Positions 78-51,314 of a stretch of 58,354 bases of DNA are shown here, piece after piece. Source of the DNA: Vicinamibacterales bacterium (GTDB taxonomy: Bacteria; Acidobacteriota; Vicinamibacteria; Vicinamibacterales; JAMQPK01); NCBI GenBank assembly GCA_036556585.1, contig DATBJG010000321.1, forward strand, positions 1 to 58,354, in the 5' to 3' direction. Under the pieces are notes generated by a model. The model searched no databases. It was not told the DNA's origin and saw only the letters and a program-made list of their open reading frames with translations. Numbering within the stretch: position 1 is the stretch's first letter; the number at the start of each line of letters is the position of its first letter. Position numbers and translations under genes: made by a program.

Positions 78-563
78 GTGCCAGAGCTGAGAGCCGAAAG
101 TCGAAAACCGAGAGCCCCAAAACCGAAATCCGAGAGCCGAAGGCCGAGAGCCAAATTGAAGGTTCTGCTCATTGACGACACGCCTGAGATTGCCGAACTT
201 CTGACATTTGCGTTGCGCGATCGCGGTTTTGAGGTAGTGGCCGAGGGCTACTCGGCGCTCATCAACGAGCGCATCATCGAGCATCGAGCCGACGCGGTTG
301 TGCTTGATTGCTCGGCGTACGACATGAGCGAGTCGCTCTTCGACACGATTCGCGATCACTCCCCGCACGCCGAACTGCCGATCGTCATCATCAGCGATAC
401 GCCAGAGGATGCCGACCGAAGCCTCCGCGCGCGCCAGGCGCAGCATGTGTTGCTCGTGCCGAAGCCGTTTACCGGATCCCAGGTTGCCCGCGCCCTCGCG
501 GCGCTTCTACCGAAGGACGCGGCGGAGATCTCGAATGTCGAAAGCCGAGACCCGCAAGCCTAG
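78..563 (+). CDS. single-domain response regulator (CheY-like receiver)
   Basis: Receiver signature KVLLIDD...DAVVLD...VPKP in the track ORF. The first ~26 codons are read through a heptamer array, so an internal TTG at 156 (giving MKVLLIDD) is an equally plausible start. Confidence 0.75.
   Translation: MPELRAESRKPRAPKPKSESRRPRAKLKVLLIDDTPEIAELLTFALRDRGFEVVAEGYSALINERIIEHRADAVVLDCSAYDMSESLFDTIRDHSPHAELPIVIISDTPEDADRSLRARQAQHVLLVPKPFTGSQVARALAALLPKDAAEISNVESRDPQA
86..155. repeat. heptanucleotide tandem array, ~10 units of GCCGARA/CCGAGAG type
   Basis: Read directly: gctgaga gccgaaa gtcgaaa accgaga gccccaa aaccgaa atccgag agccgaa ggccgag agccaaa. Confidence 0.85.
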
Positions 564-642
564 ACCCGCGCGCGAGAGCCGAGAGACTAGACCCGAGACC
601 CGAGAGCCAAACACGAGAGCCGAGAGCCTAGAGCCGAAACCC
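531..642. repeat. heptanucleotide tandem array, ~16 units of CCGAGAC/CGAGAGC type, same orientation as 86-155
   Basis: Read directly: tcgaatg tcgaaag ccgagac ccgcaag cctagac ... gagagcc gagagcc tagagcc gaaaccc. Spans the stop of the receiver gene and ends just before the next start. Confidence 0.85.
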
Positions 643-646
643 GACC

Positions 647-964
647 ATGTGGTCTCTCAACGACTGGGAGTACGTCGAGCGGCAGGTGGTGACCGATCCG
701 AAGGGTCGTCAGTGGTCGATTGCGCTGATGGATCTGCTGGGACAGAAGGGGGATCCCGACCGGCCCAGTGAGTGGCTCGAGCTGCAGTACTCCTCCGGTC
801 GATATTTCACTCTCGTCTATTCGTCGAGCGGTGCGATTCAGCGGGAACAAGGGTATACGTCCCTGGCAGAGGCAACCCGCGCCTACGAACGGCTCCTTCT
901 TGCCGTCGTCGACGGCACGCTCGATCCTGCCCAGCCCGTATTCCGGGAAGATCTGGAAGACTGA
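647..964 (+). CDS. hypothetical protein (105 aa)
   Basis: ORF begins right after the repeat array and has a protein-like composition. I recognise no motif. Confidence 0.5.
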   Translation: MWSLNDWEYVERQVVTDPKGRQWSIALMDLLGQKGDPDRPSEWLELQYSSGRYFTLVYSSSGAIQREQGYTSLAEATRAYERLLLAVVDGTLDPAQPVFREDLED

Positions 965-7445: not shown

Positions 7446-7487
7446 CACCAGTCACTGCCCACTGGCCACTAGCCACTACCCATCGCT
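7446..7487. repeat. heptanucleotide tandem array, 6 units CACTNNC type
   Basis: Read directly: caccagt cactgcc cactggc cactagc cactacc catcgct. Sits between two convergent stops and covers the last codons of the DUF1622 gene. Confidence 0.8.
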
Positions 7488-22155: not shown

Positions 22156-22173
22156 AGTAAGAATACCGGAGTC

Positions 22174-22278
22174 GGAAGACAGAAGACAGAAGATAGAAGA
22201 CGGAAGACGGAATCAGACGAATAGAGACAGAATGAGAAGATCATTCTGTCTTCCGTCTTCTATCTTCTGTCTTCCGTC
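22174..22278. repeat. inverted pair of GAAGACR heptamer arrays forming a hairpin (perfect 27-bp stem 22182-22208 / 22248-22274)
   Basis: Verified base by base: gaagacagaagatagaagacggaagac versus gtcttccgtcttctatcttctgtcttc. The right arm encodes the last codons and the stop of hemY. Confidence 0.9.
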
Positions 22279-23675
22279 GAGCGAAGCTCATTAGCGACCG
22301 CTCGTGCAGTTGTGCGGCCGTCGGCAATGCAGTCGGGAATCCCAACCCCACGGAGCCCTGTGCCGGTGATGAACAGTCTCGGCCACTGTGCCAGGCGCCG
22401 ATCGATCTCCGCCATCCGCTTCACGTGTCCTACCTCCTGTTGCGGGCTGGCGCGATGCCAGCGATAGACCCGGGCGAGGGACGGGCGGGCGTGGATGCGA
22501 AGAATCGCGCCGAGATCACGTTCGGCCGCTGACACGAGCTCTGCATCACTTCGTTCCACCGCTTGTGGATCGCGTGCGCCGCCAAGAAACGCACGCAGCA
22601 ACACTTGGCCTTCTGGCGCACGCTTCGGCCATTTTGACGAGACCCAGGTGCCAGCCGTAATCGTCAGGCCTTCGCGACGTGGGACGACAAATCCGGTTCC
22701 GTGCAATGGATGGCCAACAGCGGCGGCTGGATAAGCGAGAAACACCGTCGCAGTGGACCAGTACGGAATACCGCAACACATTCTTGCCAGTTCCTCGTCG
22801 AAAGGCTGAACCAGCGAGGCCGTTGCCCACGCCGGCAGGGCCAGCACGACGGCTCGAGCTTCGATCACACCATGTTGATCCTGGTAAACGCGCGTCCATT
22901 CTCCAGGCTCGATCCGTTGTACCAATCCGCCGCAACGGAGACTTCCTTCCGGCAGGCTCGAGATGACTGCGTCAACCAGTTCGCCCAATCCACCTGGCAA
23001 GGAGCGGAAGACACCGTCACCTCCACTTTTTGCAGATCTCGTGGCAAAGGCGCGGATGATGCTCCCGGTTGTGGCCTCTGCCTCGACAAGACGCGGAAAC
23101 GATGCGCCGATGGACAGGTGATCCACGTCACCAGCATGAATGCCGGCAAGGAGTGGTTCGGCGATGTAGTCAACCGCCTCGCGACCGAAATGCCGCTGCA
23201 CGAACGACGCGATTGATTCGTCCTCTCCCGATTGTCGCGGTCGCGAGAACACCTCGCTCGCCATTCGGAGCTTGGCAGACGGGCTGAACAGGCTGGATGT
23301 GACGAGCGGCCAAAGGCGCGTGGGGAAGCCGAGGATCGAAGCCTCGGGAATCGCGTGCAGGGCGCCGCCCCGATACACAAATGCCGTTCGCGGTACTTGC
23401 GTGGCTACCAGACGATCCGAGATCCCCAGCTCGTGGCAGAGTTCTGGGGCAGCCGGTTTTTGCACGAGGAGCGAATCGGGGCCGGCATCGACGAGAAATC
23501 CGTCATGGTGCTCCGTCACGATGACGCCGCCTGGTCGCGGCCGTTTTTCGAGAATCCGGAAGGTCAGGCCTCGAAGCTGGAGCTCATACGCGGCGGATAA
23601 GCCAGAGATGCCCCCGCCAACGATGGCGACATCAACGCGATGAGGCGGGTTGTCACTGGCGGGCTCGGCCATCAT
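22260..23675 (-). CDS. hemY: protoporphyrinogen/coproporphyrinogen III oxidase (HemY/CgoX type, FAD-dependent)
   Basis: VAIVGGGISGLSAAYEL FAD motif and PPOX-like length. ATGA overlap with hemH. Confidence 0.9.
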   Translation of the reverse strand: MMAEPASDNPPHRVDVAIVGGGISGLSAAYELQLRGLTFRILEKRPRPGGVIVTEHHDGFLVDAGPDSLLVQKPAAPELCHELGISDRLVATQVPRTAFVYRGGALHAIPEASILGFPTRLWPLVTSSLFSPSAKLRMASEVFSRPRQSGEDESIASFVQRHFGREAVDYIAEPLLAGIHAGDVDHLSIGASFPRLVEAEATTGSIIRAFATRSAKSGGDGVFRSLPGGLGELVDAVISSLPEGSLRCGGLVQRIEPGEWTRVYQDQHGVIEARAVVLALPAWATASLVQPFDEELARMCCGIPYWSTATVFLAYPAAAVGHPLHGTGFVVPRREGLTITAGTWVSSKWPKRAPEGQVLLRAFLGGARDPQAVERSDAELVSAAERDLGAILRIHARPSLARVYRWHRASPQQEVGHVKRMAEIDRRLAQWPRLFITGTGLRGVGIPDCIADGRTTARAVANELRSTEDRR

Positions 23676-24562: not shown

Positions 24563-24565
24563 AAA

Positions 24566-25649: not shown

Positions 25650-25653
25650 GGTA

Positions 25654-27017: not shown

Positions 27018-27974
27018 GTGCCTCACCTGCGATTCACCCGCGACAAGCGGGGCTATGAAAATACGTACGTCGTCCATGCAGTGCGACGCCGTGGAAAAGC
27101 GCGACAGCGCATTCTGTACTGGTTCAGGACCCCGCCCAATGTCCGAGTGGGCCGTGCAGCCCTCGACGAAGACGCGATCCGACTGATCGAGGAAAACAAT
27201 CCGGACATCGAATTCGACTGGACCAAGATTCTCGAGGCTCAGCCTCCTGTCGCGCCGGCTCCTGAGGAGACTCGAGATCGCCGACGACGGGTGCGGGGTC
27301 AGACAGCGGCAGGGCGCGCGCGAGTGGCGGAGGCCGGAGTGCGCGAGCCGGTCGCCGAGCCCGCTGCCGAGCCTGGGGCAAGTGCTGCAGTACCTGACGC
27401 GGCACCAATGGGTGATGCACCGCAGTCCGAGGTTGTGACACCCGAAGTGGCGGACGTACCCGAAATCGAACCTCCCGTGCTCGTGCCAGTCACCGTCTAC
27501 CACGGCGGTGCCGATGTGCTCGTCGCAAGCGTCGTGGACGAATCGCCGCGACAATCGGCCGTCGAAGCGCGTCTGGGTTCTGAATTGCTCGGCCGCATTC
27601 GCGCCCGGTACGCGGAAATCTCGGCGCGGATCACCGAACGTGTTGGCGGTGACCCCGCGCGTTTCGAAGAGATGCGACGTGCGGCCGAAGCGCTGAATCC
27701 TGATTTGTGGGTCACCGAAGACGAGATTGCCGCGGGGTTGCAACACTTTGACGCACGGCTCGGCGAGATTCGCCGTGCCCTTGGGATCAAGCGCCGCCGT
27801 CGGTCCCGTCGTGGCGGGCGTCGCCGGCGAGGACGGCGGCCCGATCAGAGCCCGACTGCGACGGCGGGATCGGCTCCAACAACTTTAGAAACTGGACCGC
27901 CGGACCATGCCGATGAGCTCGACCAAGGTGAGGTGGGGGACGACGAAACGGACTCGGACGACACTGACCACTAA
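27018..27974 (+). CDS. hypothetical protein with conserved-looking N-domain, disordered acidic/Pro-rich middle and poly-Arg then poly-Asp tail
   Basis: Start trimmed to GTG 27018, 8 nt after the upstream stop. Contains RDKRGYENTYVVH...ILYWFRTPP. Confidence 0.55.
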   Translation: MPHLRFTRDKRGYENTYVVHAVRRRGKARQRILYWFRTPPNVRVGRAALDEDAIRLIEENNPDIEFDWTKILEAQPPVAPAPEETRDRRRRVRGQTAAGRARVAEAGVREPVAEPAAEPGASAAVPDAAPMGDAPQSEVVTPEVADVPEIEPPVLVPVTVYHGGADVLVASVVDESPRQSAVEARLGSELLGRIRARYAEISARITERVGGDPARFEEMRRAAEALNPDLWVTEDEIAAGLQHFDARLGEIRRALGIKRRRRSRRGGRRRRGRRPDQSPTATAGSAPTTLETGPPDHADELDQGEVGDDETDSDDTDH

Positions 27975-27996
27975 CCACTGACCACCGGCCACGCCG
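27962..27996. repeat. heptanucleotide tandem array, 5 units CACTGAC type
   Basis: cactgac cactaac cactgac caccggc cacgccg. Covers the stop of the preceding gene. Confidence 0.8.
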
Positions 27997-29280: not shown

Positions 29281-29285
29281 GTGCT

Positions 29286-29445
29286 GGGGATTCGGGGTTG
29301 GGGATTCGGGGTTCGGGAATCCCGAATCCTGATTGTCGAATCTCAGTTGCCTGATTGTCGAATCCCGATTCCCGAATCCCGAATCCCGATTGTCGAATCT
29401 CAGTTGCCTGATTGTCGAATCCCGATTCCCGAATCCCGAATCCCG
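29286..29445. repeat. composite GGGGATT/GAATCCC heptamer element with an exact 57-bp tandem duplication (29331-29387 = 29388-29444)
   Basis: A G-rich arm (ggggattcggggtt x2) is followed by a near-complementary C-rich array. The duplication was verified base by base. Confidence 0.9.
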
Positions 29446-29502
29446 AGGTAGTCTTACCCCCGTTACATGTGACCGCTAGTCTACCGGAGCGGAGGGCCAA
29501 CC

Positions 29503-33294: not shown

Positions 33295-35877
33295 ATGCGT
33301 CGAATGATTCTGTCAGCGGCGCTCCTGGTCAGCCTGAACTTGATTGTTGCGGCGGGTGCGGGACTGTTTGCCACTCAGGTGGCGGAGATCCCCGTCCCGT
33401 CCCAATTCCTCAAGCTCTCGATTGGCGGCAATGGCGTGCTGGCATCCTACGACCAGATCGTCGCCTACTGGCGCGCCGTCGATGCGCTGAGCGATCGCAT
33501 CGTCGTGCAGGAACTCGGCAAGACGACGATGGGCCGTCCGTATGTGGCGGCGATCGTAACGTCGCCGGAAAACCAGAGACGTCTGGAGGAATATCGCCTC
33601 ATCAACCATCGGCTCTACGATGCCCGCCGAACGTCGGATTCGCAGGCTCAGGAGCTGATTTCGCGCGGCAAGACGATCGTGGCCATCCAGATGGGAATTC
33701 ACTCGGACGAGGTGGCTGCGCCGCAGTTGTCGCTCGAACTGGCGCACCAGTTCGCGACGGATAACTCGGCGCGAATGCTCGAAATCCTCGATCAAACCAT
33801 CATCATTCTGTCGCCATCCCACAATCCGGATGGGACGCAGATGGTGGCCGAATGGAACCAGCGAACCCTGGGGACGCCCTACGAGGGGTCCGTTCTGCCG
33901 TTCCTCTATCACCACTACGTCGGCCACGACAACAACCGCGATTGGTACATGTTTACCCAGGCGGAGAGTCGCATTACGGTGGGGCAGATTTGGAACCGGT
34001 GGCATCCGCAAATCAGCCACGACCTCCACCAGATGAGCCCCGACGGGGCCCGCGCGTTCGTGCCTCCGTATCTGGACCCCGTTGACCCCAACATCGATCC
34101 CATCCTCCGTGAGCAAACCAATGCCCTTGGGTCGCGTATGGCAGCCGAGCTGGCTGCCAAAGGGAAAGACGGCGTGGTGACCAATGCCATCTACGACCTC
34201 TGGACACCGGCCCGGGCGTATGTGAACTATCACGGGGGCGTGCGAATCCTGACGGAGGTTGCAGGCGTGAGGCTGGCGAGTCCCGTGACGCTCAGTCAGT
34301 CGTCGCTCAGACCCGGGATCGGGTTCGACCCACGGCGAGCCTCGTGGAATTTCCCGAGGCCGTGGTCGGGGGGCGCCTGGCGCATGCGCGACATCATGGA
34401 CTACCAGCACGTGGCGGTGGACGCGCTGCTCGATCACGCCGCACGGAATCGCGTGTCGTGGCTGACTCGATTCTGGCAGGTCAGCAAGCGGGCGAGCAGT
34501 AGGAGTGGCGGAAGCACAGAGCGGCGCCAACCCTACGCCGTTGTGATTCCGGCAGCCCAGCGTGATCCGCTGGCCGTCACCGAGATGCTGCGCGCGCTGC
34601 AGCTTGGCGATGTCGAGGTGCATCGGGCACGGGCAGCATTCAGGGCCGGCAACGGGCGGTATCCGGCAGGAACCCATGTGATCCTCATGGCCCAACCGGC
34701 TGGCGCGTTCGCAAAGACGCTCACCGAAGTGCAACGCTATCCGGACGTCCGACCCTACGCCGGTGCCCCCCCGCAGCAGCCCTACGACGTGACGGCCTAC
34801 ACGATGCCGCTCCTCATGGGGGTCACGGCGAGACAGGTGACGCAGCCGTTCGATGCCGATCTTGAATTGGTGCCTAACCCCGTTCCAGCCGTTCCCGGTA
34901 CGCTGGGACCGACGAGCCGAGGCGGGTACACGTTGGCTCACGATAGTGCGGGCACTCGTGCTCTCATTCGCTTGCTCAAGGGACAAGTGCGGGTCGGCTG
35001 GGCCCGTCAGCCATTTGTGGTCAACGGGAAGAAGCTCCCTGCAGGAACCATCGTGGTGCCCGAGGGACAGCCCGGCGCCCGAGACCTGCTTGCCGGGATT
35101 GTCCGCACGCTGCCTGTGAAGGTTGGCGTTACCGACGGGGCGTTGCCCCCAGTTTGGTCGCTCCGTCTACCTCGGGTTGGCCTGTACCGCTCCTATGCCC
35201 CCTCGATCGATGAAGGCTGGACGAGGTGGATCCTCGATCAATGGGCGCTGCCGTATTCGACCCTCGAGAACGGAGACATCCGGAACGGTCAAGCCACGCT
35301 GCGGACCAGGTTTGACGTCATCGTGCTCCCCGATCAGTATGTGACCGAGATCGTCGATGGGCTCGGTTCGGGACAAGTGCCGCCCGAGTATGCAGGTGGC
35401 ATTGGCGACGAGGGCGTGGGCGCCTTGCGATCGTTTGTCGAGCAGGGTGGAACCCTCGTCGCGCTCGACTCGGCATCGTCTCTTCCGGTCCAACGGTTTG
35501 GCCTGCCAGTCGAGAACGCTTCGCACAATGGCATTTACGGGCCCGGGTCCATTCTTCGTGCGCAAGTGGATGTGGGTCACCCGATTGGCTATGGCTCTGA
35601 AAGCGGGAGTATCGCCTGGTTTGAGCACAGCCTCGCATTTCGGGCCCGGGGAAATGCCCGATCAGTTGTGACGTACGCCCGGAGTTCGGAGCTCTTGCTG
35701 AGCGGCTGGCTGATGGGCGGGGAGCACCTGGCCGGGACCGACGCCGTCGTGGAGGCGCCGCTCGGACGTGGCCGAGTGATTTTGTTCGGTTTTCGCCCTC
35801 AGTATCGCGCGCAGACCTGGGCGACGTTCGGGCTGTTCTTTAACGCACTGTTTTATTCGACGACCACCAGCCACTGA
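33295..35877 (+). CDS. M14 family zinc carboxypeptidase-like protein with large C-terminal extension
   Basis: Signal peptide, GIHSDEV (HxxE zinc motif), and SPSHNPDG. Confidence 0.88.
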   Translation: MRRMILSAALLVSLNLIVAAGAGLFATQVAEIPVPSQFLKLSIGGNGVLASYDQIVAYWRAVDALSDRIVVQELGKTTMGRPYVAAIVTSPENQRRLEEYRLINHRLYDARRTSDSQAQELISRGKTIVAIQMGIHSDEVAAPQLSLELAHQFATDNSARMLEILDQTIIILSPSHNPDGTQMVAEWNQRTLGTPYEGSVLPFLYHHYVGHDNNRDWYMFTQAESRITVGQIWNRWHPQISHDLHQMSPDGARAFVPPYLDPVDPNIDPILREQTNALGSRMAAELAAKGKDGVVTNAIYDLWTPARAYVNYHGGVRILTEVAGVRLASPVTLSQSSLRPGIGFDPRRASWNFPRPWSGGAWRMRDIMDYQHVAVDALLDHAARNRVSWLTRFWQVSKRASSRSGGSTERRQPYAVVIPAAQRDPLAVTEMLRALQLGDVEVHRARAAFRAGNGRYPAGTHVILMAQPAGAFAKTLTEVQRYPDVRPYAGAPPQQPYDVTAYTMPLLMGVTARQVTQPFDADLELVPNPVPAVPGTLGPTSRGGYTLAHDSAGTRALIRLLKGQVRVGWARQPFVVNGKKLPAGTIVVPEGQPGARDLLAGIVRTLPVKVGVTDGALPPVWSLRLPRVGLYRSYAPSIDEGWTRWILDQWALPYSTLENGDIRNGQATLRTRFDVIVLPDQYVTEIVDGLGSGQVPPEYAGGIGDEGVGALRSFVEQGGTLVALDSASSLPVQRFGLPVENASHNGIYGPGSILRAQVDVGHPIGYGSESGSIAWFEHSLAFRARGNARSVVTYARSSELLLSGWLMGGEHLAGTDAVVEAPLGRGRVILFGFRPQYRAQTWATFGLFFNALFYSTTTSH

Positions 35878-35924
35878 CCACGAGCCACGGACCACTAGTC
35901 ACGGACCACAGACCACTGGCCATT
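35862..35924. repeat. heptanucleotide tandem array, 9 units GACCACN/AGCCACN
   Basis: gaccacc agccact gaccacg agccacg gaccact agtcacg gaccaca gaccact ggccatt. Sits between convergent stops and covers the last codons of the M14 gene. Confidence 0.88.
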
Positions 35925-35933
35925 GTCCTTAAG

Positions 35934-36615: not shown

Positions 36616-37659
36616 GTGATCACGAGGCGCGCGTCATGGTTGGTTCGTTGTGTCCTCGTGGTCGCCAGTCTGGCCGTACCTGCGAGTCACGCCGGAGCCT
36701 CCACACAAAGTACGTCGTCAAAGCCCACCGCCAAGTCCAGTACTAAAGCCAAGAAATCCACATCGCGACAGCGAGCAAGTTCTCGGGCGCGCCGAGCGGC
36801 TGCACGACGTGCGCAAGCTGCTCGAACACTGCGCGAAGCCTCGACGCCAAAGTATCGCGTCGATGAGATCACGGGCGCACTCGTGCCCGACCTGCGCGCT
36901 GATGCGGCAATCATTTACGACGTGAAGACCGGAGAGGTCCTCTGGGAGCAGAACGCACAGGATCAGCGGTCGATTGCGAGCATCACCAAGGTCATGACCG
37001 CCGTCGTGTTCCTCGAGGGTAATCCGGATCTCACGCAGGAAGTGGTCATCGCGCGCGACGACATGCGGGGGGCGTCGACGACCTTCCTGCGCTTGAACGA
37101 GCGTGTGAAATTTGATGATCTTCTGCACCTCACGCTGATCCCGTCGGACAACGCGGCCGCCAGGGCTTTGGCGCGGACGTATCCTGGTGGTATGCCGGCA
37201 TTTGTGGACCGCATGAACCAGAAAGCCCTGGATCTCGGTCTCCAGAACACGCACTATGCCGACCCCTCGGGACTGAGCTCGGACAATGTTTCCTCGGCGT
37301 ACGACATGGCTCGGCTTATCACGTATGCCGCGTCCAACGACAAGATTGCCAGCGTGATGCGCACCGCGGAGTACACGTTTGGCACCAGCCGGCGAAACCG
37401 TGTCACGGTGCGCAATACCAATCAGCTGGTCCGTCAGGGTGACGTGGACGTGCTCGGCGGCAAGACCGGCTTCATCCGCAAGGCGGGCTACTGCCTGGCC
37501 ACGCTACTGCGGCTTCCCGAAGGCGGCCCCGAAATTGCCGTGGTCGTCCTCGGCGCTCGGTCGAACGTCGGACGCTTCTGGGAAACCCGGCATCTGTTCA
37601 ACTGGTTCGCCCAGAACACCCGCAGCCTCTTCTCAACGTCGATTCCGCAAGAAGAATAG
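36616..37659 (+). CDS. D-alanyl-D-alanine carboxypeptidase (peptidase S11, PBP5/6-like)
   Basis: SIASITK (SxxK), PSDN (SxN) and GGKTGF (KTG). Start trimmed to GTG 36616, which follows a GGAGGA RBS. Confidence 0.88.
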   Translation: MITRRASWLVRCVLVVASLAVPASHAGASTQSTSSKPTAKSSTKAKKSTSRQRASSRARRAAARRAQAARTLREASTPKYRVDEITGALVPDLRADAAIIYDVKTGEVLWEQNAQDQRSIASITKVMTAVVFLEGNPDLTQEVVIARDDMRGASTTFLRLNERVKFDDLLHLTLIPSDNAAARALARTYPGGMPAFVDRMNQKALDLGLQNTHYADPSGLSSDNVSSAYDMARLITYAASNDKIASVMRTAEYTFGTSRRNRVTVRNTNQLVRQGDVDVLGGKTGFIRKAGYCLATLLRLPEGGPEIAVVVLGARSNVGRFWETRHLFNWFAQNTRSLFSTSIPQEE

Positions 37660-37688
37660 ACTTCTGTCTTCTGGCTTCTGTCTTCTGA
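37650..37688. repeat. heptanucleotide array GTCTTCT type (complement of the GAAGAC family)
   Basis: gacttct gtcttct ggcttct gtcttct, between convergent stops. Confidence 0.8.
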
Positions 37689-37699
37689 CACGCTCTTAG

Positions 37700-40611: not shown

Positions 40612-41600
40612 ACGCTCCGCGCAACGTCATCATTATTGGTTCGGGGCCAGCGGGCCTCACCGCGGCTCTTTACGCGGCCCGCGCGAACCTGTCGCCTCTT
40701 GTCATCGAAGGACTCGACGCCGGCGGGCAACTCATGCTGACAACGGCCGTCGACAACTTCCCGGGCTTCAGGGACGGCATCCTGGGACCGGACTTGATGG
40801 CCGAAATGCGCGCTCAGGCCGAGAGGTTTGGGACCGAGATTGTGCAGGGTTCGGTGACGAAGGTCGATGTCAGGCGTCCTCCTTATACCGTGACCACCTC
40901 GTCCTCCTCCTATTCGGCGCTTTCGTTGATTATTGCCACCGGCGCTTCGGCACGGCTGCTGGGGTTGCCATCCGAACGGACACTGATGGGGCATGGTGTC
41001 TCAACGTGCGCAACCTGCGACGGGTACTTCTTCCGTGGGCGGCCCATTGCGGTCGTGGGGGGCGGTGACTCCGCCCTCGAGGAAGCGACGTTTCTGTCGA
41101 AGTTCGCTTCGCACGTCACGGTCATTCACCGCCGCGACAAACTGCGCGCGTCGAAGATCATGCAGGACAAGGCGTTCGCCAACCCGAAGATCTCGTTCGT
41201 CTGGGACACGGTCGTTGAAGACGTTCACGACGCCGCAAAAGGCGAGGTCACGGGTCTGACGCTGAAGCACGTGGACACGGGAGCTCGCAGCGAGCTCGCA
41301 GTCGACGGGTTGTTTGTGGCGATCGGCCACACCCCCAACACATCGTTTTTCGCCAATCAGCTGGAGATGGACGCCAACGGGTACATCGTCACGCGCACGG
41401 GCACGCGAACGAGCGTGGCGGGCGTGTTTGCCTGCGGTGACGTGCAGGATCACGTCTATCGTCAAGCCATCACCGCAGCCGGCTCCGGTTGCATGGCGGC
41501 TATCGATGCCGAGAAGTACCTCGAGGGCATACCGCATACCGAGACCCATCAGAAGCCATCAGCCATCAGCCATCAGCCTTCAGCTAAGGCTGGCACCTAA
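40608..41600 (+). CDS. trxB: thioredoxin-disulfide reductase
   Basis: IIIGSGPAGLTAA, redox CATCDG, GGGDSALEEA. ATGA overlap with trxA. The last ~17 codons lie in a heptamer array. Confidence 0.93.
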   Translation: MNAPRNVIIIGSGPAGLTAALYAARANLSPLVIEGLDAGGQLMLTTAVDNFPGFRDGILGPDLMAEMRAQAERFGTEIVQGSVTKVDVRRPPYTVTTSSSSYSALSLIIATGASARLLGLPSERTLMGHGVSTCATCDGYFFRGRPIAVVGGGDSALEEATFLSKFASHVTVIHRRDKLRASKIMQDKAFANPKISFVWDTVVEDVHDAAKGEVTGLTLKHVDTGARSELAVDGLFVAIGHTPNTSFFANQLEMDANGYIVTRTGTRTSVAGVFACGDVQDHVYRQAITAAGSGCMAAIDAEKYLEGIPHTETHQKPSAISHQPSAKAGT

Positions 41601-41630
41601 GCTGAAGGCTGAAGGCTGACAGCTGAAGGC
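41547..41630. repeat. heptanucleotide array CAGCCAT/CAGCCTT followed by complementary TGAAGGC units (hairpin across the trxB stop)
   Basis: agccttcagctaagg (41575-41589) pairs with cctaagctgaaggct (41596-41610) with one central mismatch. Confidence 0.85.
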
Positions 41631-41645
41631 TGTTATAATCAATAC

Positions 41646-42002
41646 ATGTGGACGAAAATGATGGGTGGTCCTCGGAAAAAGGCTCCGAAGACCATTGCGG
41701 TCATCGACCCCGACCGCTGTTTTGGGGCATTCGCCTGTTCGATCTGTCAAGCGGCGTGTCCCGTTGCCGGATGCATTGTCGAAGAGCCAGACCGGGATGG
41801 CCGAATGGTTTGCGCCGTGCGTGCCGACCTCTGTATCGGCTGCGGTCTGTGTGTCACGTTGGGAAATCCTACCGCTCCCCAACAGCGGGAGTTTGGCTGC
41901 CCCGCGGATTACGACGCGATTGACATGATGCCGTTCGAGGACGTCGTCAAGGCGATCCAGGAAGCTGAAAAGGCTGGAAAAGTCGGCGCGGTGGCATCGT
42001 AA
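41646..42002 (+). CDS. 4Fe-4S dicluster ferredoxin-like protein
   Basis: CSICQAACP and CIGCGLC motifs. Confidence 0.8.
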   Translation: MWTKMMGGPRKKAPKTIAVIDPDRCFGAFACSICQAACPVAGCIVEEPDRDGRMVCAVRADLCIGCGLCVTLGNPTAPQQREFGCPADYDAIDMMPFEDVVKAIQEAEKAGKVGAVAS

Positions 42003-42007
42003 AAAAC

Positions 42008-42109
42008 CAGAATACAGAATACAGAATACAGAACGGGAATTCGGAAGCCGGGTTTCTCAAACTCCTCTTCTGTATTCCACATTCTGTATTCTGAATTTGG
42101 TATTCTTCT
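42008..42109. repeat. inverted pair of CAGAATA heptamer arrays (imperfect hairpin: 13 bp + 3-nt bubble + 10 bp)
   Basis: cagaata x3 then cagaacg ... ttctgta ttccaca ttctgta ttctgaa. Fills the gap between convergent stops. Confidence 0.88.
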
Positions 42110-42114
42110 TTTTC

Positions 42115-43722: not shown

Positions 43723-43724
43723 GC

Positions 43725-43766
43725 GGAAGAATATAGAAGAAAGAAGACGGAAGACGGAAGACAGAA
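43725..43766. repeat. heptanucleotide array GAAGAA/GACGGAA type, 6 units
   Basis: ggaagaa tatagaa gaaagaa gacggaa gacggaa gacagaa. Fills almost the whole 51-bp divergent intergenic region. Confidence 0.85.
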
Positions 43767-43773
43767 TTTGGAC

Positions 43774-46805: not shown

Positions 46806-46818
46806 GCTGTCATGCGCT

Positions 46819-46837
46819 AACGACTGACGACTGACAA
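46819..46837. repeat. short CGACTGA heptamer array (complement of the GTCGTCA family)
   Basis: aacgactgacgactgacaa read directly. Confidence 0.6.
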
Positions 46838-46843
46838 CACTCC

Positions 46844-47194
46844 ATGACCTATCCCATCGACATCTGGCTTCGGGGCACCGATTATGCGACGACCCGTGAA
46901 AGCACGACGGCGTCGGAGCCTGCTGCCTGGACGGATGCCGATGTCGAAATCGTGCTGAAAGACATGCTGCGGGCGGTGGACCGCGAAAAAAATCCCAAGT
47001 CCGAGGAACGTCCGGTCTTTTTGCGCGGGTTCAGTTGGATCGTCAACCCCTACCAGGACGGCGGGGTCGTGATCGCCATCGAACTTCAGGCCGGAGCAGC
47101 AGTTGCAGGCCCGTTTGACATCGGTCGCCAGGAGCTCGAGCAGATGGTCACCCGGGTCATGACTCAGGGACAAGTCCCTCCGGGCGTGCACTAG
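46844..47194 (+). CDS. hypothetical protein (116 aa)
   Basis: ORF with protein-like composition. No motif recognised. Confidence 0.5.
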   Translation: MTYPIDIWLRGTDYATTRESTTASEPAAWTDADVEIVLKDMLRAVDREKNPKSEERPVFLRGFSWIVNPYQDGGVVIAIELQAGAAVAGPFDIGRQELEQMVTRVMTQGQVPPGVH

Positions 47195-47729: not shown

Positions 47730-50249
47730 ATGTCGGCATCGCTCCTGTTACAGATCACCCTGAAGGTCTCGATTTTCCTTGCGATGGCGTGGCTCGCGAC
47801 ACGGGTCATGCGGCGCTCATCGGCGGCCGCCCGTCATTTCGTCTGGGCGACTGCCATTGTCGGGATTCTTCTCGTACCGGTGATGGTCCTCGTCGGGCCG
47901 GTGTGGAATCTGAGCGTGCTTCCGGCTGGCTCGGCTCTCGGGTCTGGGCGCTCGGCGCTCGTGGAATACGGACCCGAACCCCGCTCGCTCAGATCCGAGA
48001 GCCGAGCGCCCAGATCCGAAAGCCGAGCGCCCAGATCCGAGAGCCGAGAAACAGACCTTGGCACGGCTATGAGCTCACAGCCTTCGGGGCTAGGCATCGA
48101 GTTCCCCGAGAGCCGAGAGCCTGGATCCGAGAGCCGAGTGACCTGGCAACCAATGCTGATGGGTCTGTGGGCAGCTGGCGTCACCTTCGTGCTTCTCAGA
48201 TTGGGGATCGGCATCGTGTGGGTCTGCTGGATTGCACGTGGCGCGGAGCCCATTAAGGATGCCCCGTGGCTGACCATCCTGGACGAGGTGACCTCGACGC
48301 TCGGTATCCGAGAACGCGTATCGTTGCGGCGGAGCGACCGAACCACGGTGCCTGTCGCATGCGGGCTCTGGCGACCGACGCTGTTGATGTCCATGGATGC
48401 CGACGAGTGGTCAGCTGACCGGCGCCGCGTTGTTCTATTGCACGAGCTGGCGCACGTCAAACGGCGCGATTGCCGTCTGCAGGCGGTTGCCCAGCTCGCC
48501 TACGCCTGGCACTGGTTCAATCCTCTGGCGCACGTCGCGGTCGCGAAACTTCGCGCTGAGCAGGAGCGCGCCTGCGACGATCTCGTGCTTGCCGCAGGCA
48601 CCGATGGGCCGGCATACGCCGATCATCTCTTTGAAATTGCGCGGGCTTTTCGATTCGATCCGTTACCCCGATGGGCGATGCTGGCCATGGCCGCTCCCTC
48701 ACAACTGGAAGGTCGTGTTCTGGCAATTCTTGACGCTGGGCGACGCCGACACACGCCCAGCCGATTGGCTCGGACGATGGGTGCGGTTGTTGCGGCTGTT
48801 GCAGTGGTGTCGCTCGGCGCCTTCCGATTGTCGGCCGCCACCGCTGGTTCTTCAGTTGCCACGAATGAAACGGCCCAAAGTGTATTCCTTTCGGATGCTG
48901 CACAGGCCGATGTGGGCGTCACTGACTCACGGGGTGAGCCTGGCGTTCTGATCTATCCACCAGATGCGACGGTCATGTCGCCGCCCGATGTCGCGGCGCC
49001 TGACGTGGCGCTGCTTGCGGCGCAGGGTCCAAGAATAACCATAAGTCCCTGGGTCGACGGGCTGGCAGTTGAACCGCAATTTGATTTTCAGCCGCCGTTG
49101 CCGCCATTCGATATCGATCCCGACCCGAATCCGGACTTCGACTTCCAGTTCGACTTCAATTTCGACGGTCTGCCGCCCGTACCTCCAATGCCTCCGATTC
49201 CTCCGATGCCACCGATTCCTCCGATGCCACCGATCGCGGGATCGGTTGGTATCGCTAAGCCTCAGGCGGCTGATGCCGTGCCGGAAGAGACACGCCGCCG
49301 CGTGGCCGACGCGTTGAGTGTGGCGCTCAACGACGAGAACGAGCGGGTGCGCGAACAGGCAATTCAAGGGCTGGCCACGATGAGAGATCCGCGGGCTGTG
49401 CCTGCGCTCATCAAGGCACTGCAGAGCCGCGACGTGCGGCTTCGCCGTATTGCGGTTGGTTCACTCAGCCAGTTCGACACGCCTGAAGCGGCACAAGGAT
49501 TGGTGACGGCACTCAAAGACGAGAACCCAGACGTGCGCCGGCAGGCGATCTCGGCGCTTGGCCGTCGGCGCGATGACAAGTACGCCGACGCGCTCGTGAC
49601 GGCGATGCGTGATCAGAATCCGGACGTGCGCCGCCAGGCCGTCGCGGCGCTCGGCCGGAGCGGGCAGTCGGCAGCGGTCGTGACGGCGCTGGTTCAAGCT
49701 CTCAAAGATTCCGACGCCGACGTCCGTCAGCGTGCGGCAGCGTCGCTGGCCCGTACCCGATCGCCCGAAGCGGTGCCGGGGTTGATTGCGGCGCTCAAGG
49801 ACGCTGACCCGGAGGTTCGTCAGATGTCGGCCGTGGCGTTGGGCGCCATTGCGGATGCGCGCGCAATTGATGCGCTGACGGCCGCACTCAAAGATGCGGA
49901 CCCACGGGTGCGCGAACGGGCCGCGATCGCGTTGAGCCGGATTGCCCGCGGACAGCGGCGTGGAACGGGGCCCTTCCCGATCGCGGATTCCAATTTCAAG
50001 CAGCTTGAACACGAAATCGTGAGAGTCCAGCAGGTGGAGCTCGAAAAGGTCCACAAACAGCTGAGCAAGTGGCAGCTGGACTTTGGAAAGGGAAGCGCGT
50101 CAGCCTGGGATTCCGACTCCCTTGATCCACGCGAAATGGTGGATGCGGCCATGCGGCAGGCAGACAGGGCCTTCAAACAATACGAGGACAACTGGCGTCA
50201 CTTCGAACAGGACAAGGGCTTGCCGGAGCCTGGGACGAAGGGCCGCTGA
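47730..50249 (+). CDS. BlaR1-like M56 metalloprotease signal transducer with Pro-rich linker and C-terminal HEAT (PBS-lyase type) repeats
   Basis: N-terminal TM helices, VVLLHELAHVKRRD (HExxH), a later TM, PPVPPMPPIPPMPPIPPMPPI, then at least 7 repeats of the D..VR..A..ALG....A...L..ALKD type. Confidence 0.88.
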   Translation: MSASLLLQITLKVSIFLAMAWLATRVMRRSSAAARHFVWATAIVGILLVPVMVLVGPVWNLSVLPAGSALGSGRSALVEYGPEPRSLRSESRAPRSESRAPRSESRETDLGTAMSSQPSGLGIEFPESREPGSESRVTWQPMLMGLWAAGVTFVLLRLGIGIVWVCWIARGAEPIKDAPWLTILDEVTSTLGIRERVSLRRSDRTTVPVACGLWRPTLLMSMDADEWSADRRRVVLLHELAHVKRRDCRLQAVAQLAYAWHWFNPLAHVAVAKLRAEQERACDDLVLAAGTDGPAYADHLFEIARAFRFDPLPRWAMLAMAAPSQLEGRVLAILDAGRRRHTPSRLARTMGAVVAAVAVVSLGAFRLSAATAGSSVATNETAQSVFLSDAAQADVGVTDSRGEPGVLIYPPDATVMSPPDVAAPDVALLAAQGPRITISPWVDGLAVEPQFDFQPPLPPFDIDPDPNPDFDFQFDFNFDGLPPVPPMPPIPPMPPIPPMPPIAGSVGIAKPQAADAVPEETRRRVADALSVALNDENERVREQAIQGLATMRDPRAVPALIKALQSRDVRLRRIAVGSLSQFDTPEAAQGLVTALKDENPDVRRQAISALGRRRDDKYADALVTAMRDQNPDVRRQAVAALGRSGQSAAVVTALVQALKDSDADVRQRAAASLARTRSPEAVPGLIAALKDADPEVRQMSAVALGAIADARAIDALTAALKDADPRVRERAAIALSRIARGQRRGTGPFPIADSNFKQLEHEIVRVQQVELEKVHKQLSKWQLDFGKGSASAWDSDSLDPREMVDAAMRQADRAFKQYEDNWRHFEQDKGLPEPGTKGR
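47991..48053. repeat. in-frame heptamer array (3 x 21 nt: agatccg agagccg agcgccc) inside the BlaR1-like CDS
   Basis: Encodes RSESRAP RSESRAP RSESRET. Same CCGAGAG family as 86-155 and 531-642. Confidence 0.88.
48106..48140. repeat. second in-frame CCGAGAG heptamer array inside the BlaR1-like CDS
   Basis: ccgagag ccgagag cctggat ccgagag ccgagtg. Confidence 0.85.
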
Positions 50250-50264
50250 GCGGAAGGACCAACT

Positions 50265-51281
50265 ATGTGGCGTGCATATCTGGTCGTCGGCGCGCTGAGC
50301 CTCTTGTGCGTGTCCGGAACAGGCGAAGCGCAGATAAACCGGCCGCGTAGTACTCCGGCCGCCATCAACGAGCAGATTGCCGGACTCTCGGCATCAGATC
50401 CGGCAGCTCGTGCGCTGGCGGCGTGTTATCTGGGGGGCATGGGACGCCGTGCGGCGTCAGCCGTGCCGGCGCTCATGCGCCTTCTGGCTGATGCGACACC
50501 AGTCGATTGGGTTGCGTGCCACGGCGGTGGTTTTTGGACGTCGAATTTCAACGACCGAACGAAATCGTCCCCTGGTCTCGAAGCCTCCCGCGCTCTCGGC
50601 CTGATTGGTGAGGCATCGCTCGATTCCCTTTTGCAGATGGTGGGTCAGAGCAACCCGGTCATCCGCCGTCACGTCGCGCACGCGCTGGGCATCATTCGCC
50701 ATGAGCGAAGCCTGCCGCCGCTCCTCACGATGGCGAAGGACGCCGACACGCAAGTGCGAGCTGAAGCTGCAGCAGGGCTTGGCCGGCAGGGTGACGCGCG
50801 CGCATTCGATTCGCTCGTCGTGCTCACGCGCGACCCGGCCTCAGACGTCCGGCAGCAGGCGACGCGAGCGCTCGGTCAGTTGCGACAGAGCGACGTAGTC
50901 AAAGTCCTGGTGGACACGGTCAAAGACGCAGACGAAGCCGTTCGGTGGGAAGCCGTGGGCGCGCTCGGCCGCGTGCGCCACGATGAAACTGGCGGCGACG
51001 TGGTCTCAACGCTCATCACAGCGCTCGGAGATCGGTCTCCGTGGGTGCGTGAGCGTGCCGCCCAGGTCCTCGGCAGGTACCGGGACGAACGTGCGGTTCA
51101 GCCACTCGTGACGCTGCTGAAGGATGGCGATCCGGAGGTGCGTGAGGAGGCGGTGACCGCGCTGGGACGTTTTAGGGAATCCCAGGCCACCGATTCGCTG
51201 ATTACCGCTCTGAAAGATCCAGACGCCGGTGTGCGCGAGCGCGCAGCCCGTGCCTTGTCGCGAGGCCGCTATCGTCAATAA
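50265..51281 (+). CDS. secreted HEAT-repeat protein
   Basis: Signal peptide MWRAYLVVGALSLLCVSGTGEAQ, then repeats D..VR..A..ALG of the same type as the preceding gene. Confidence 0.85.
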   Translation: MWRAYLVVGALSLLCVSGTGEAQINRPRSTPAAINEQIAGLSASDPAARALAACYLGGMGRRAASAVPALMRLLADATPVDWVACHGGGFWTSNFNDRTKSSPGLEASRALGLIGEASLDSLLQMVGQSNPVIRRHVAHALGIIRHERSLPPLLTMAKDADTQVRAEAAAGLGRQGDARAFDSLVVLTRDPASDVRQQATRALGQLRQSDVVKVLVDTVKDADEAVRWEAVGALGRVRHDETGGDVVSTLITALGDRSPWVRERAAQVLGRYRDERAVQPLVTLLKDGDPEVREEAVTALGRFRESQATDSLITALKDPDAGVRERAARALSRGRYRQ

Positions 51282-51314
51282 CGAATCCGACCCCCGAATT
51301 CGACCCCCGAATCC
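51282..51314. repeat. GAATYCGACCCCC 13-mer x2 plus a partial unit (GAATCCC-related)
   Basis: gaatccgaccccc gaattcgaccccc gaatccc, filling the gap between convergent stops. Confidence 0.75.

Follow-up and report, generated by a model that had tools for sequence, protein, structure and literature searches.

Bacterial arrays of heptanucleotides have been on record since 1990, and we know of no agreed function for them and of no agreed cause of their period of 7. The STRR of Calothrix and Nostoc/Anabaena are arrays of this kind. The units of STRR1-3 are CCCCAGT, TTGGTCA and CAACAGT, and no tandem dimer of any of the three is present in the window, the 58,354-nt stretch of DNA from a Vicinamibacterales soil acidobacterium analysed here. 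In Xanthomonas and Nostoc, arrays of GGGAATC and GGGGAYT, respectively, lie 0-50 bp from ORF ends and form inverted pairs (Rehm et al. 2015, PMC4692102). They are kept between the same genes across species while their length and sequence vary, and are fewer between divergent genes; polymerase slippage has been put forward to explain them (PMC4692102). Marine Beggiatoaceae carry direct repeats of the heptamer TAACTGA directly upstream of start codons, with no obvious ribosome-binding site (MacGregor 2015, PMC4679880); this word occurs once in the window. Mrazek et al. 2007, as relayed in PMC4679880 and PMC4692102, reported heptanucleotide SSRs as over-represented in scattered phyla and proposed slippage. 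The account in PMC4679880 assigns the ten genomes richest in 5-11-nt repeats to Betaproteobacteria, Cyanobacteria, Actinobacteria and Gammaproteobacteria and does not name Acidobacteria.

The first-pass annotation had taken the window to be acidobacterial from its gene content. This is borne out by its best relatives, which are Vicinamibacterales MAGs with a hemE at most 75% identical, and our literature search revealed no earlier account of such arrays from Acidobacteria, in line with the annotator's impression. We called arrays with Tandem Repeats Finder (TRF) and by local lag-k autocorrelation, using Markov-2 shuffles as the null. The autocorrelation yields 20 lag-7 arrays (1027 nt) in the 58-kb window compared with 0.55 in the shuffles. 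All other lags from 4 to 13 give 0-3 arrays each, and besides 7 only its multiples 14 and 21 are enriched, so that the window shows the excess of period 7 over composition, with other periods at background, that characterizes Mrazek-type SSRs. TRF reported period 7 (or 14/21) at 85-152, 539-639, 7453-7482, 22175-22212 with 22244-22278, 25653-25716, 27962-27985, 29285-29446, 35862-35922, 37661-37687, 41554-41632, 42008-42033 with 42068-42106, 43727-43766, 46820-46835 and 47929-48146. Within the window, both methods thus confirm that heptanucleotide arrays are pervasive. The period was said to be strictly 7 nt; this fails at 51282-51314, where it is 13 (7+6), and the arrays at 46819-46837 (only 2.3 copies) and 24566-24612 are weak. 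The latter is degenerate, being absent from the TRF output and returned as 24564-24596 by the lag-7 scan. Several arrays contain indels, and 29317-29446 is a 57-nt higher-order repeat made of heptamers.

That the arrays are assembly or sequencing artefacts can practically be dismissed. It is true that short-read contigs often break inside them (25 of 86 in a metagenome scan for (GTCGTCA)3) and that module copy number could be collapsed. Yet identical arrays stand at identical places in contigs from more than 10 independent samples, the modules carry differing point variants, and relatives have arrays on contigs of 0.2-1.5 Mb (L001, L003, L017).

The arrays in a single orientation are the following; where no strand was assigned the array is marked unstranded.
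85..152, unstranded: GCCGARA/CCGAGAG direct array (TRF, sequence) whose end lies 3 nt ahead of a response-regulator gene that starts at TTG 156; RNA fold unstructured (z +0.6).
527..646, unstranded: CCGAGAG-type direct array (TRF, lag-7, sequence) spanning the final codons of the response-regulator gene (stop at 563) together with the entire 83-nt gap to ATG 647; fold z -0.8.
7446..7487, unstranded: CCACTNN direct array (TRF, lag-7) that begins 1 nt past the stop of a LuxR-type regulator gene (6812-7444); fold z -0.65.
24564..24612, unstranded: short degenerate GAAGAYA array (lag-7, sequence) that fills the 52-nt hemE-hemH gap and on the sense (minus) strand ends in TCTTCTATATTCTTTTTTT-ATG, which places a -10-like TATATT 8 nt ahead of the hemH start codon; no significant fold (z -0.6).
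25646..25726, unstranded: (AGTCGTC) x 9, the most regular array of all (TRF score 114, 92% matches), immediately upstream of the hemE start (25649, minus strand); as a triple, its unit is found in at least 120 metagenome stretches.
27958..27995, unstranded: CCACTRA direct array (TRF, sequence) upstream of TATACT-N7-ATG (28015), with a CTGACC hexamer inside it 18 nt upstream of the -10-like box.
35862..35931, unstranded: (RNCCACN) x 9 direct array (TRF, lag-7, sequence) formed by the last 16 nt of an M14 peptidase gene and the entire 56-nt convergent gap; the CCAC core is invariant, 3 positions vary, and the fold is unstructured (z +0.4).
37650..37692, unstranded: CTTCTGK direct array (TRF, sequence) overlapping the stop (37659) of a D-Ala-D-Ala carboxypeptidase gene; fold z -0.7.
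43726..43773, unstranded: GAAGACG/GAAGAAW direct array (sequence) that fills the whole 51-nt divergent gap from a carboxyltransferase start (43722, minus) to a BrkB-like start (43774, plus), with a -10-like hexamer at both ends; -2.3 kcal/mol as RNA.
46817..46844, unstranded: weak ACGACTG x 2.3 array (TRF, sequence) within the 38-nt gap preceding ATG 46844.
51282..51314, unstranded: CGAATCC + GACCCC repeat of period 13, not 7 (TRF), that fills a 38-nt convergent gap.

Arrays account for 13.1% of the non-coding and 0.58% of the coding bases of the window, and for 4.6% and 0.44%, respectively, in relatives, a predominantly intergenic placement as in STRR. The tabulated positions agree with the earlier description of arrays that adjoin stop or start codons and fill gaps; the gaps at 22156-22259, 24563-24614, 35878-35933, 42003-42114, 43723-43773 and 46806-46843 are almost wholly array. 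Arrays occur in 9 of 22 co-directional, 3 of 6 convergent and 1 of 8 divergent gaps, a bias that rests on small numbers and crude gene calls. Arrays close to a start codon are often followed by a -10-like box at 6-8 nt from the ATG, and therefore several of them are probably promoter-upstream DNA and not transcribed leaders. The genes downstream of several single arrays are probably leaderless.

A role in providing stop codons in all three frames was considered and rejected because several units, namely CCGAGAG, CTTCTGT, GAATCCC, CAGCCAT and CAGAATA, contain no stop in the sense orientation. An Rfam search of the whole window at gathering threshold matched one tRNA only, so no known RNA family covers any array. 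A Pfam scan of 50 window ORFs returned ordinary chromosomal genes and placed no transposase, reverse transcriptase or cold-shock protein beside the arrays. For hemE, BlaI and BlaR1, no exact-protein records were found.

Inverted pairs, and the higher-order repeat adjoining one of them, are found at these positions.
22163..22284, unstranded: inverted pair (GAAGACR)n-loop-(YGTCTTC)n (TRF, sequence) that fills the 104-nt gap between two minus-strand genes, from the stop of a protoporphyrinogen oxidase-like gene (22260) to the start of the following one (22155); RNA hairpin of -68.1 kcal/mol, z -9.9, with 0 of 200 shuffles as stable.
29285..29334, unstranded: inverted pair of GGGGATTC/GGGGTTC with GAATCCC (fold, sequence), beginning 4 nt past the stop 29280; hairpin of -35.5 kcal/mol, z -5.6.
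29335..29451, unstranded: GAATCCC/GATTCCC heptamers in a 57-nt higher-order repeat of 2.3 copies (TRF period 57, score 253).
41546..41634, unstranded: inverted pair (CAGCCWT)n / (GAAGGCT)n (fold, sequence) that contains the final ~18 codons and the stop of a thioredoxin-reductase-like gene and ends at TGTTATAAT-N6-ATG (41646); hairpin of -56.2 kcal/mol, z -8.5.
41999..42114, unstranded: inverted pair (CAGAATA)3 / (TATTCTG)n between convergent genes (fold, sequence), flanked by A6 at the left and a T-rich tract at the right; -45.7 (+ strand) and -50.5 (- strand) kcal/mol, z about -8.
47929..48138, plus strand: intragenic arrays in a BlaR1/Peptidase_M56-like gene (Pfam residues 6-333, translation), with a GCTCGGC-type array followed by its complement, which forms a 21-nt in-frame repeat (PRSESRA x 3), and lastly by a further CCGAGAG stretch; RNA hairpin of -87.4 kcal/mol, z -8.2.

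As had been noticed at the outset, an array is followed by its own reverse complement, namely at 22163-22284, 29285-29334, 41546-41634, 41999-42109 and 47929-48050. The RNA folds of these five pairs range from -35 to -87 kcal/mol (z -5.6 to -9.9), and the fold z of direct arrays is near 0. Irregular units are mirrored between the hairpin arms at 22163-22284 and at 11014-11161 of relative L003, which identifies the arms as inverted copies of each other. The suggested role in termination or RNA 3'-end stabilization is plausible for the inverted pairs from their predicted fold energies; the direct arrays are predicted to be unstructured. The pair at 41999..42114 has the predicted anatomy of a bidirectional intrinsic terminator, with A-tract, stem and U-tract on both strands. 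The other hairpins are without a clear U-tract, and one is intragenic. This array (47929-48140), correctly annotated as such, corresponds to about residues 66-137 of the Peptidase_M56/BlaR1-like protein, in frame and with period 21, and a hairpin at this position cannot be a terminator. Canonical terminator and promoter scans remained at chance (terminator hits 17 vs 14.7 and 15 vs 14.5) and missed the long array hairpins because the scan forbids loops >8 nt. In the small module-internal stem of 41546-41634 no compensatory change was found among the population variants.

G-quadruplex or i-motif formation, which has been put forward for the GGGNATC arrays in Xanthomonas and Nostoc, is an extremely improbable explanation of the arrays. 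The G-rich arm at 29286-29317 fits the G4 pattern, 29364-29387 and 29421-29444 are its C-rich counterpart, and the GAATCCC/GATTCCC units resemble the Xanthomonas unit; however, G or C runs are restricted to this locus (29286-29444), and GAAGACR, CCGAGAG, CCACTGA, GTCGTCA, CAGCCWT and CAGAATA lack G-runs and cannot form G4.

For population variation we used 64 kb of alignment to 25 independent same-species contigs (0.30% SNPs). Of 18 indel events 15 fall inside arrays, which directly shows the gain and loss of units between samples that the first-pass annotation had listed as a possibility, and matches the whole-unit change between close relatives expected of Mrazek-type slippage. The sizes recorded are 7 nt (four events) in intergenic DNA, 21 nt (two events) in the coding array, and 55, 57, 103, 199 and 220 nt for modules. 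At 85..152 contig L097 is one unit shorter, while at 527..646 L092 and L097 have an extra CGAGAGC unit (gap of 90 nt vs 83). At 29335..29451 L081 lacks one 57-nt copy and L083 equals the window. The 48-55-nt hairpin module at 41546..41634 is present once in the window, twice in L085 and three times in L084 and L087, with further copies in L086 (+220 nt vs the window) and L091 (+199 nt). A fourth CAGAATA unit is found at 41999..42114 in L091, with right-arm point variants in other contigs, and L218 and L219 have one additional 21-nt unit at 47929..48138. The array at 27958..27995 is unchanged across L081-L083, that at 46817..46844 keeps its copy number in 8 contigs with one SNP, and L082 terminates within 25646..25726. 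Intergenic unit changes stay inside the arrays and leave the distance from array end to -10 box or start unaltered. The sole coding polymorphism is in frame (+21 nt), unlike the frame shifts of a phase-variable on/off locus.

Several relatives have similar arrays at the orthologous loci, and so do Nitrospira and Anaerolineae. Orthologous gaps of relatives hold arrays of unrelated units, i.e. the position persists and the unit differs. Thus the hemE-hemH gap folds with -82.5 in L003, twice -53 in L017 and -60 in L018, and an array site 2.7-3.9 kb upstream of hemE is kept in nine Nitrospira loci with related but different units. This is the positional conservation with varying length and sequence known from Xanthomonas and Nostoc, seen here for the hemE-flanking gaps of Vicinamibacterales and the upstream site of Nitrospira.

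The units themselves were said to differ between loci, which is half right: several words exist, but they belong to few recurring families, each at many loci as in STRR. There are 36 unit pairs within one mismatch vs 4.2 expected, and 29 of the 36 link distant loci. The annotation's conclusion that the arrays share no binding word is too strong because of this recurrence at distant loci. Its 21-bp protein docking finds no support in our analysis. Variable positions within units cluster and leave a 4-nt core (best-3-block 147 vs 135 +/- 4, p about 0.004), which, from the unit sequences, hints at a constraint on the word. In the window the orientation relative to transcription is constant despite a strand flip, both for TGACGAC (25654, 46819) and for YGTCTTC (24566, 37650). 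In co-directional gaps of metagenomes (GTCGTCA)3 shows no orientation bias (15:19), and orientation was therefore dropped as general evidence for an RNA-level word. The intragenic bias of (GTCGTCA)3 in metagenomes, with 14 of 14 in one orientation, is trivial because the opposite strand has TGA in all three frames.

These features bear on the view that the arrays are multimeric platforms on which one or a few sequence-specific proteins recognize a 4-nt core that returns every 7 nt. These might be HutP/TRAP-type ring RNA binders or else cold-shock/OB-fold proteins, each of the latter occupying about 7 nt, and their binding would control termination, translation or RNA stability. The few unit families at distant loci, the confinement of variation to 2-3 positions with a core such as CCAC or GAAG kept, and the in-window orientation are consistent with such a platform, and a CspB-heptamer idea is discussed in PMC4679880. 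We nevertheless regard it as quite unlikely: several proteins would be required for the 5 or more unrelated cores found in 58 kb, related genomes have completely different units at the same site, the metagenome GTCGTCA arrays lack an orientation bias, copy number is unconstrained, and several arrays probably precede the transcription start. Moreover, the core-clustering signal is modest and could be inflated by block duplication.

Recurrence at distant loci, including the 14-mer AAGAATATAGAAGA that is identical at 24568 (array 24564..24612) and 43727, and the tandem duplication of whole hairpin modules could also point to spread by a copy mechanism, as of REP by RAYT transposases or as of MITEs. 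This is very unlikely, since no flanks common to same-family arrays of the window were seen, nor any terminal inverted repeats or target-site duplications beside them, no transposase or RAYT-like gene is among the 50 ORFs scanned, the arrays are orthologously positioned in different species, and the observed changes are local gains and losses of units.

The arrays might finally be neutral mutational debris that fills unconstrained DNA, with functionless hairpins and placement. Copy number that varies freely between samples, unit turnover between species, arrays in every gap type and even in a coding loop, and the unbiased GTCGTCA arrays of metagenomes (15:19) all fit this reading, and template switching can mirror arms without selection. 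Giant hairpins of unrelated units, however, recur in the same orthologous gap of several species, arrays are rare in divergent gaps (1 of 8), one pair has a complete bidirectional-terminator anatomy, and unit families recur with conserved cores. On balance we consider neutrality unlikely.

With somewhat better than even confidence we favour slippage-driven heptanucleotide SSRs, of the same kind as STRR and the heptamer arrays of Xanthomonas, Nostoc and Beggiatoaceae, some of which appear to have been co-opted as transcript-end hairpins. From the population variation we infer that strand slippage in replication would add or remove whole units, and neighbouring arrays may misalign or template-switch, whereby hairpin modules are duplicated and inverted copies are formed. 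Arrays would accumulate downstream of stop codons, up to the next promoter or start, because selection presumably purges harmful ones; within genes only those would persist that keep the frame in 21-nt steps and lie in tolerant loops. Once transcribed, inverted pairs would fold into very long and stable hairpins, both at the ends of genes and between cistrons, most likely acting as transcript-end elements, i.e. terminators or 3' exonuclease barriers like REP in E. coli. Single direct arrays would represent structure-free spacer DNA or RNA, several of them immediately preceding the -10 box of a probably leaderless gene, and changes in copy number would tune hairpin and spacer effects. Slippage alone leaves unexplained why the period is 7 and not 5, 6 or 8, and why the same or one-mismatch units stand at distant loci. 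A more far-reaching reading, which we hold to be quite doubtful, takes the arrays for more than slippage debris, as a genome-wide system shared by several lineages (Vicinamibacterales, Nitrospira, Anaerolineae and others). A dedicated factor would recognize, or else produce, the 4-nt core at every seventh nucleotide. A small vocabulary of words would then make up intergenic terminator-promoter cassettes, and copy number would serve as a heritable, reversible rheostat of operon polarity and leaderless-promoter strength in slow-growing soil bacteria.

The phenomenon now extends to abundant, mostly uncultivated soil lineages, with Vicinamibacterales and the same loci in Nitrospira and Anaerolineae. 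Arrays can form an eighth of intergenic DNA, and natural populations vary by single units, in-frame unit triplets and whole hairpin modules, which provides a concrete natural system for asking whether arrays set transcript ends or tune expression. A practical warning follows as well: arrays break short-read assemblies and confuse gene-start and stop calls.

Compared with known systems, the arrays resemble REP/BIME in that both would be intergenic or intercistronic 3'-end hairpins that could stabilize upstream mRNA or stop transcription. REPs are ~35-nt imperfect palindromes with a conserved consensus that are spread by RAYT transposases, and the 58 kb show no common consensus across loci and no transposase-like domain in 50 ORFs. 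SSR contingency loci of Haemophilus and Neisseria share slippage-driven change of unit number within a population. Their units are 1-5 nt and switch reading frame or promoter spacing, whereas the window units are 7 nt, change coding sequence only in frame (21 nt) and have no evident on/off logic. The tandem repeats of Borg elements likewise evolve rapidly and lie both between genes and, as in-frame additions of disordered peptide, within them, but their units are longer and of variable length without a fixed 7-nt period, and they belong to an archaeal extrachromosomal element (PMC9879509). Beggiatoaceae have a single dominant word in 2-6 copies, while the window has many words, longer arrays and hairpin pairs. 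In contrast to the SSRs of Mrazek et al., unit-level polymorphism in natural populations is directly shown for the window arrays. The GAATCCC/GATTCCC/GGGGATT locus has nearly the same word as the Xanthomonas and Nostoc arrays, yet those form one G-rich family, read as G4-forming, and the window has at least 5 mostly non-G-rich families in 58 kb. The proposed likeness to STRR holds for the array anatomy, since both are tandem heptanucleotides in intergenic DNA with a handful of families recurring at many loci; it does not hold as a tie to heterocystous cyanobacteria, as heptamer arrays also occur in Xanthomonas and Beggiatoaceae (PMC4692102, PMC4679880). The window differs from STRR in its host, a member of the Acidobacteriota and not a heterocystous cyanobacterium, in that about half of its arrays are inverted pairs with giant hairpins, and in the amplification of 48-57 nt modules. 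The Vicinamibacterales arrays are thus a known repeat type in a new lineage.

Tandem Repeats Finder recovers, with a period of 7, 14 or 21, almost every heptanucleotide array that the first-pass annotation had read from the sequence of the window. In a local autocorrelation scan (windows of 21 positions, identity of 70% or more at lag k) lag 7 yields 20 arrays covering 1027 nt, where second-order Markov shuffles average 0.55; the other lags within 4-13 yield 0-3 arrays each. As enrichment besides lag 7 is seen only at 14 and 21, the period is specific. Some assignments had to be revised. The stretch 51282-51314, previously taken for a 7-nt array, has a period of 13 (7-mer plus 6-mer), and at 46819-46837 the period of 7 holds with a mere 2.3 copies. 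The array at 24566-24612 can be retained as a degenerate one, and the heptamers at 29317-29446 are confirmed, yet Tandem Repeats Finder shows them to be organised as a 57-nt higher-order repeat. A G-quadruplex pattern fits solely 29286-29317 and its C-rich counterpart in the window.

To place the arrays relative to genes we combined Pfam hits, public-contig gene calls and a codon-bias caller. Arrays occupy 13.1% of non-coding bases, 22 times their share of coding bases (0.58%). Many intergenic gaps consist almost wholly of array (listed as all-array), and in places arrays overrun the 3' end of a gene and then provide its final codons and stop:

22156-22259, all-array gap between a protoporphyrinogen-oxidase-like gene and the next gene
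24563-24614, all-array gap between hemE and hemH
35878-35933, all-array gap, convergent genes
42003-42114, all-array gap, convergent genes
43723-43773, all-array gap, divergent genes
46806-46843, all-array gap
531-563, array inside the 3' end of a response regulator gene
41546-41600, array inside the 3' end of a thioredoxin-reductase-like gene
35862-35877, array inside the 3' end of an M14 peptidase gene

Of the gaps measuring 30 nt or more, 9 of 22 between co-directional genes, 3 of 6 between convergent genes and 1 of 8 between divergent genes contain an array; these numbers are small, and the trend agrees with that reported for Xanthomonas arrays (PMC4692102). The arrays at 47929-48140 are intragenic, as had been proposed for 47991-48140, and correspond to residues ~66-137 of a Peptidase_M56/BlaR1-like protein, where they are translated in frame with a 21-nt period (PRSESRA x3). 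The arrays are clustered, with none at 7500-22100 (14.6 kb), where genes for two-component and sigma-54 regulators abound, nor at 52000-58354 (last 6 kb); both stretches have intergenic gaps of 100-500 nt.

Natural variation was analysed in 25 same-species contigs from more than 10 other samples, recovered by exact-protein look-ups and differing from the window by 0.30% substitutions over 64 kb aligned. Fifteen of the 18 indel events fall inside heptamer arrays, providing direct evidence that the arrays are hypervariable unit by unit. The intergenic arrays at 86-155, 531-642 and 42008 have gained or lost single 7-nt units, the repeat at 29317-29446 is shorter by one 57-nt higher-order copy in contig L081, and two contigs carry one extra 21-nt unit, i.e. 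one more PRSESRA, in the coding array. The window has a single copy of a 48-55-nt hairpin module at 41546-41634, contig L085 has two, and L084 and L087 have three each; at this site L086 and L091 are longer than the window by 220 and 199 nt, corresponding to several further copies, and point variants distinguish the modules. Contig ends often fall within arrays. Two of the three non-array indels are one 254/255-nt deletion at 1088-1342, found in contigs L093 and L094. This segment holds an ORF (1118-1336) for a 72-residue C-terminal fragment of an OMP_b-brl_4 outer-membrane barrel, probably a gene remnant. The third lies within another, coding tandem repeat. In the BlaR1-HEAT protein gene, a 9/18-nt in-frame tandem repeat (CCTCCGATG x 5.9) occupies 49182-49234 and is 18 nt shorter in contig L218, showing that coding tandem repeats of other periods are polymorphic too. 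Contig L092 lacks ~50 nt (window ~27-84) immediately before the 86-155 array; GCGTG is thereby fused directly to the array, the edge of which is one deletion end.

The best-supported explanation is that the arrays are heptanucleotide simple-sequence repeats in which units are added, lost and replaced over time through replication slippage, a mechanism that we infer. Misalignment or template switching between neighbouring arrays would generate inverted copies and module duplications. Irregular units mirrored between the hairpin arms at 22163-22284 and in the Vicinamibacterales locus L003 fit such an origin. Selection would restrict arrays to the DNA from a stop codon to the next promoter or start, and inside genes would allow in-frame steps only, in tolerant protein loops. 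That selection is at work is indicated by the coding DNA, which shows in-frame steps only.

The arrays adopt two architectures. At five loci an array is followed by its own reverse complement, and the RNA folds into a very long hairpin with an energy (MFE) far below expectation:

22156-22290, minus strand, inverted pair, -68.1 kcal/mol, z -9.9
29278-29345, inverted pair, -35.5 kcal/mol, z -5.6
41540-41645, inverted pair, -56.2 kcal/mol, z -8.5
41998-42118, inverted pair, -45.7 (plus strand) and -50.5 kcal/mol (minus strand), z about -8
47920-48060, inverted pair, -87.4 kcal/mol, z -8.2

The remaining arrays are direct and unstructured as RNA, with z near 0 (e.g. 43720-43778, MFE -2.3 kcal/mol). 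Convergent genes border the pair at 41999-42114, which has A6 at one flank and a T-rich tract at the other; judged by its sequence, it has all the parts expected of a bidirectional intrinsic terminator. A canonical terminator scan of the window returned matches at chance level (17 versus 14.7 and 15 versus 14.5), and canonical terminators are therefore not obviously doing the transcript-end job. Within 20000-58354, stem-plus-U-tract matches occur at the level of shuffled sequence, the majority being intragenic. The sole Rfam match in the window is a tRNA gene at 19992-20063 (minus strand). Regarding effects on RNA, we infer that inverted pairs, once transcribed, most likely form transcript-end hairpins and that direct arrays may serve as structure-free spacers; copy number would tune both effects.

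Of 55 genes, nine carry a -10-like hexamer (TATAAT, TATATT, TATACT, TAGAAT and similar) 5-9 nt before the start codon, compared with 2.5% at random positions. The starts are at 6812, 18389, 24562 (minus strand), 28015, 36461 (minus strand), 41646, 43722 (minus strand), 43774 and 54044. Five of these genes directly follow an array:

hemH, array then TATATT-N8-ATG
28015, array then TATACT-N7-ATG
41646, array then TGTTATAAT-N6-ATG
43722, array then TATATT-N7-ATG
43774, array then CAGAAT-N6-ATG

Most of the nine genes have no Shine-Dalgarno match. This pattern suggests that leaderless mRNAs are common in the organism; if so, the arrays that precede the five listed genes would be promoter-upstream DNA and not transcribed leader.

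The unit sequences are not random. Allowing rotation and reverse complement, 36 array pairs have units with at most one mismatch, compared with 4.2 expected (maximum 12 in 2000 trials), and 29 of them connect distant loci. Single changes link families (TGACGAC to TGACCAC, ACAGAAG to ACAGAAT). An identical 14-mer, AAGAATATAGAAGA, is found at 24568-24581 and 43727-43740, a recurrence with a chance expectation of 0; read on the sense (minus) strand, it immediately precedes the hemH and carboxyltransferase starts and includes the -10-like TATATT. The recurrence of words at distant loci, together with the period being 7, is left unaccounted for by slippage and leaves some room for a less favoured model, that of a protein recognising a core at 7-nt intervals. 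Variable unit positions cluster so that a core such as CCAC or GAAG remains (147 versus 135 +/- 4, p about 0.004), a modest signal that block duplication can inflate. Units that belong to the same family keep their orientation relative to transcription within the window. In public metagenomes (GTCGTCA)3 occurs in at least 120 stretches, in organisms of 35-71% G+C, with no orientation bias in co-directional gaps (15:19), and orientation was consequently dropped as evidence.

We compared 80 orthologous loci; the closest hemE relatives are Vicinamibacterales MAGs (Acidobacteriota), at most 75% identical. Period-7 arrays are frequent in Vicinamibacterales with 63-67% G+C (L001, L003, L014, L017, L018, L019), in several Nitrospira and in one other Acidobacteriota locus (L068), and are very dense in Brevefilum fermentans (Anaerolineae; L049), with 8 arrays in 11 kb. 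Few or none are seen in the remaining lineages and in Vicinamibacterales whose G+C is 69% or higher. Several of the relatives that carry arrays are represented by contigs of 0.2-1.5 Mb, and the arrays can therefore not be put down to one odd assembly. In relatives, arrays cover 4.6% of non-coding versus 0.44% of 'coding' bases by crude gene calls. Position is kept while the unit changes, as seen for giant hairpins around hemE:

L003, hemE-hemH gap, unrelated units, -82.5 kcal/mol, z -8.7
L017, hemE-hemH gap, unrelated units, two hairpins of -53 kcal/mol
L018, hemE-hemH gap, unrelated units, -60 kcal/mol, inner arms of period 12/20, outer heptamers
L001, upstream of hemE, -70.7 kcal/mol

Likewise, an array site 2.7-3.9 kb upstream of hemE is common to nine Nitrospira loci (among L025-L037), where the units resemble one another without being the same (CGTGAAA, GTGAATG, GTGATGA, ACTCAGN, GGGGTNA). 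Inverted pairs with periods of 8 nt (CCACGAAA/TTTCGTGG) and 12/20 nt (AAGTCAAAGTCA/TTGGACTTTGAC) occur at L017 3238-3295, L017 13621-13680 and L018 11038-11158, indicating that the hairpin-from-tandem-units architecture is not strictly bound to 7 nt.

The arrays are thus real and well characterised, and their kind is already known. According to PMC4679880 and PMC4692102, a 2007 report named heptanucleotides the most abundant long-unit SSR class in phylogenetically scattered bacteria and suggested that polymerase slippage causes them, and three heptamer families were described in Calothrix in 1990. Literature searches returned no report of heptamer arrays in Acidobacteria and no description of those around hemE in Nitrospira and Brevefilum. 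The value of the present arrays lies in extending a known repeat kind to abundant uncultivated soil lineages, in their very high intergenic load, and in showing directly that natural populations are polymorphic by single units, by in-frame steps and by whole modules. Xanthomonas GGGAATC and Nostoc GGGGAYT arrays lie at most 50 bp from ORF ends, form inverted pairs and are constant in position but variable in length and sequence between species (PMC4692102); the TAACTGA repeats of Beggiatoaceae stand directly 5' of start codons (PMC4679880). None of these three words, nor STRR1-3 of heterocystous cyanobacteria, occurs in tandem in the window. In every structural respect the arrays of the window are of this known heptanucleotide kind, from which they differ in host lineage and words.
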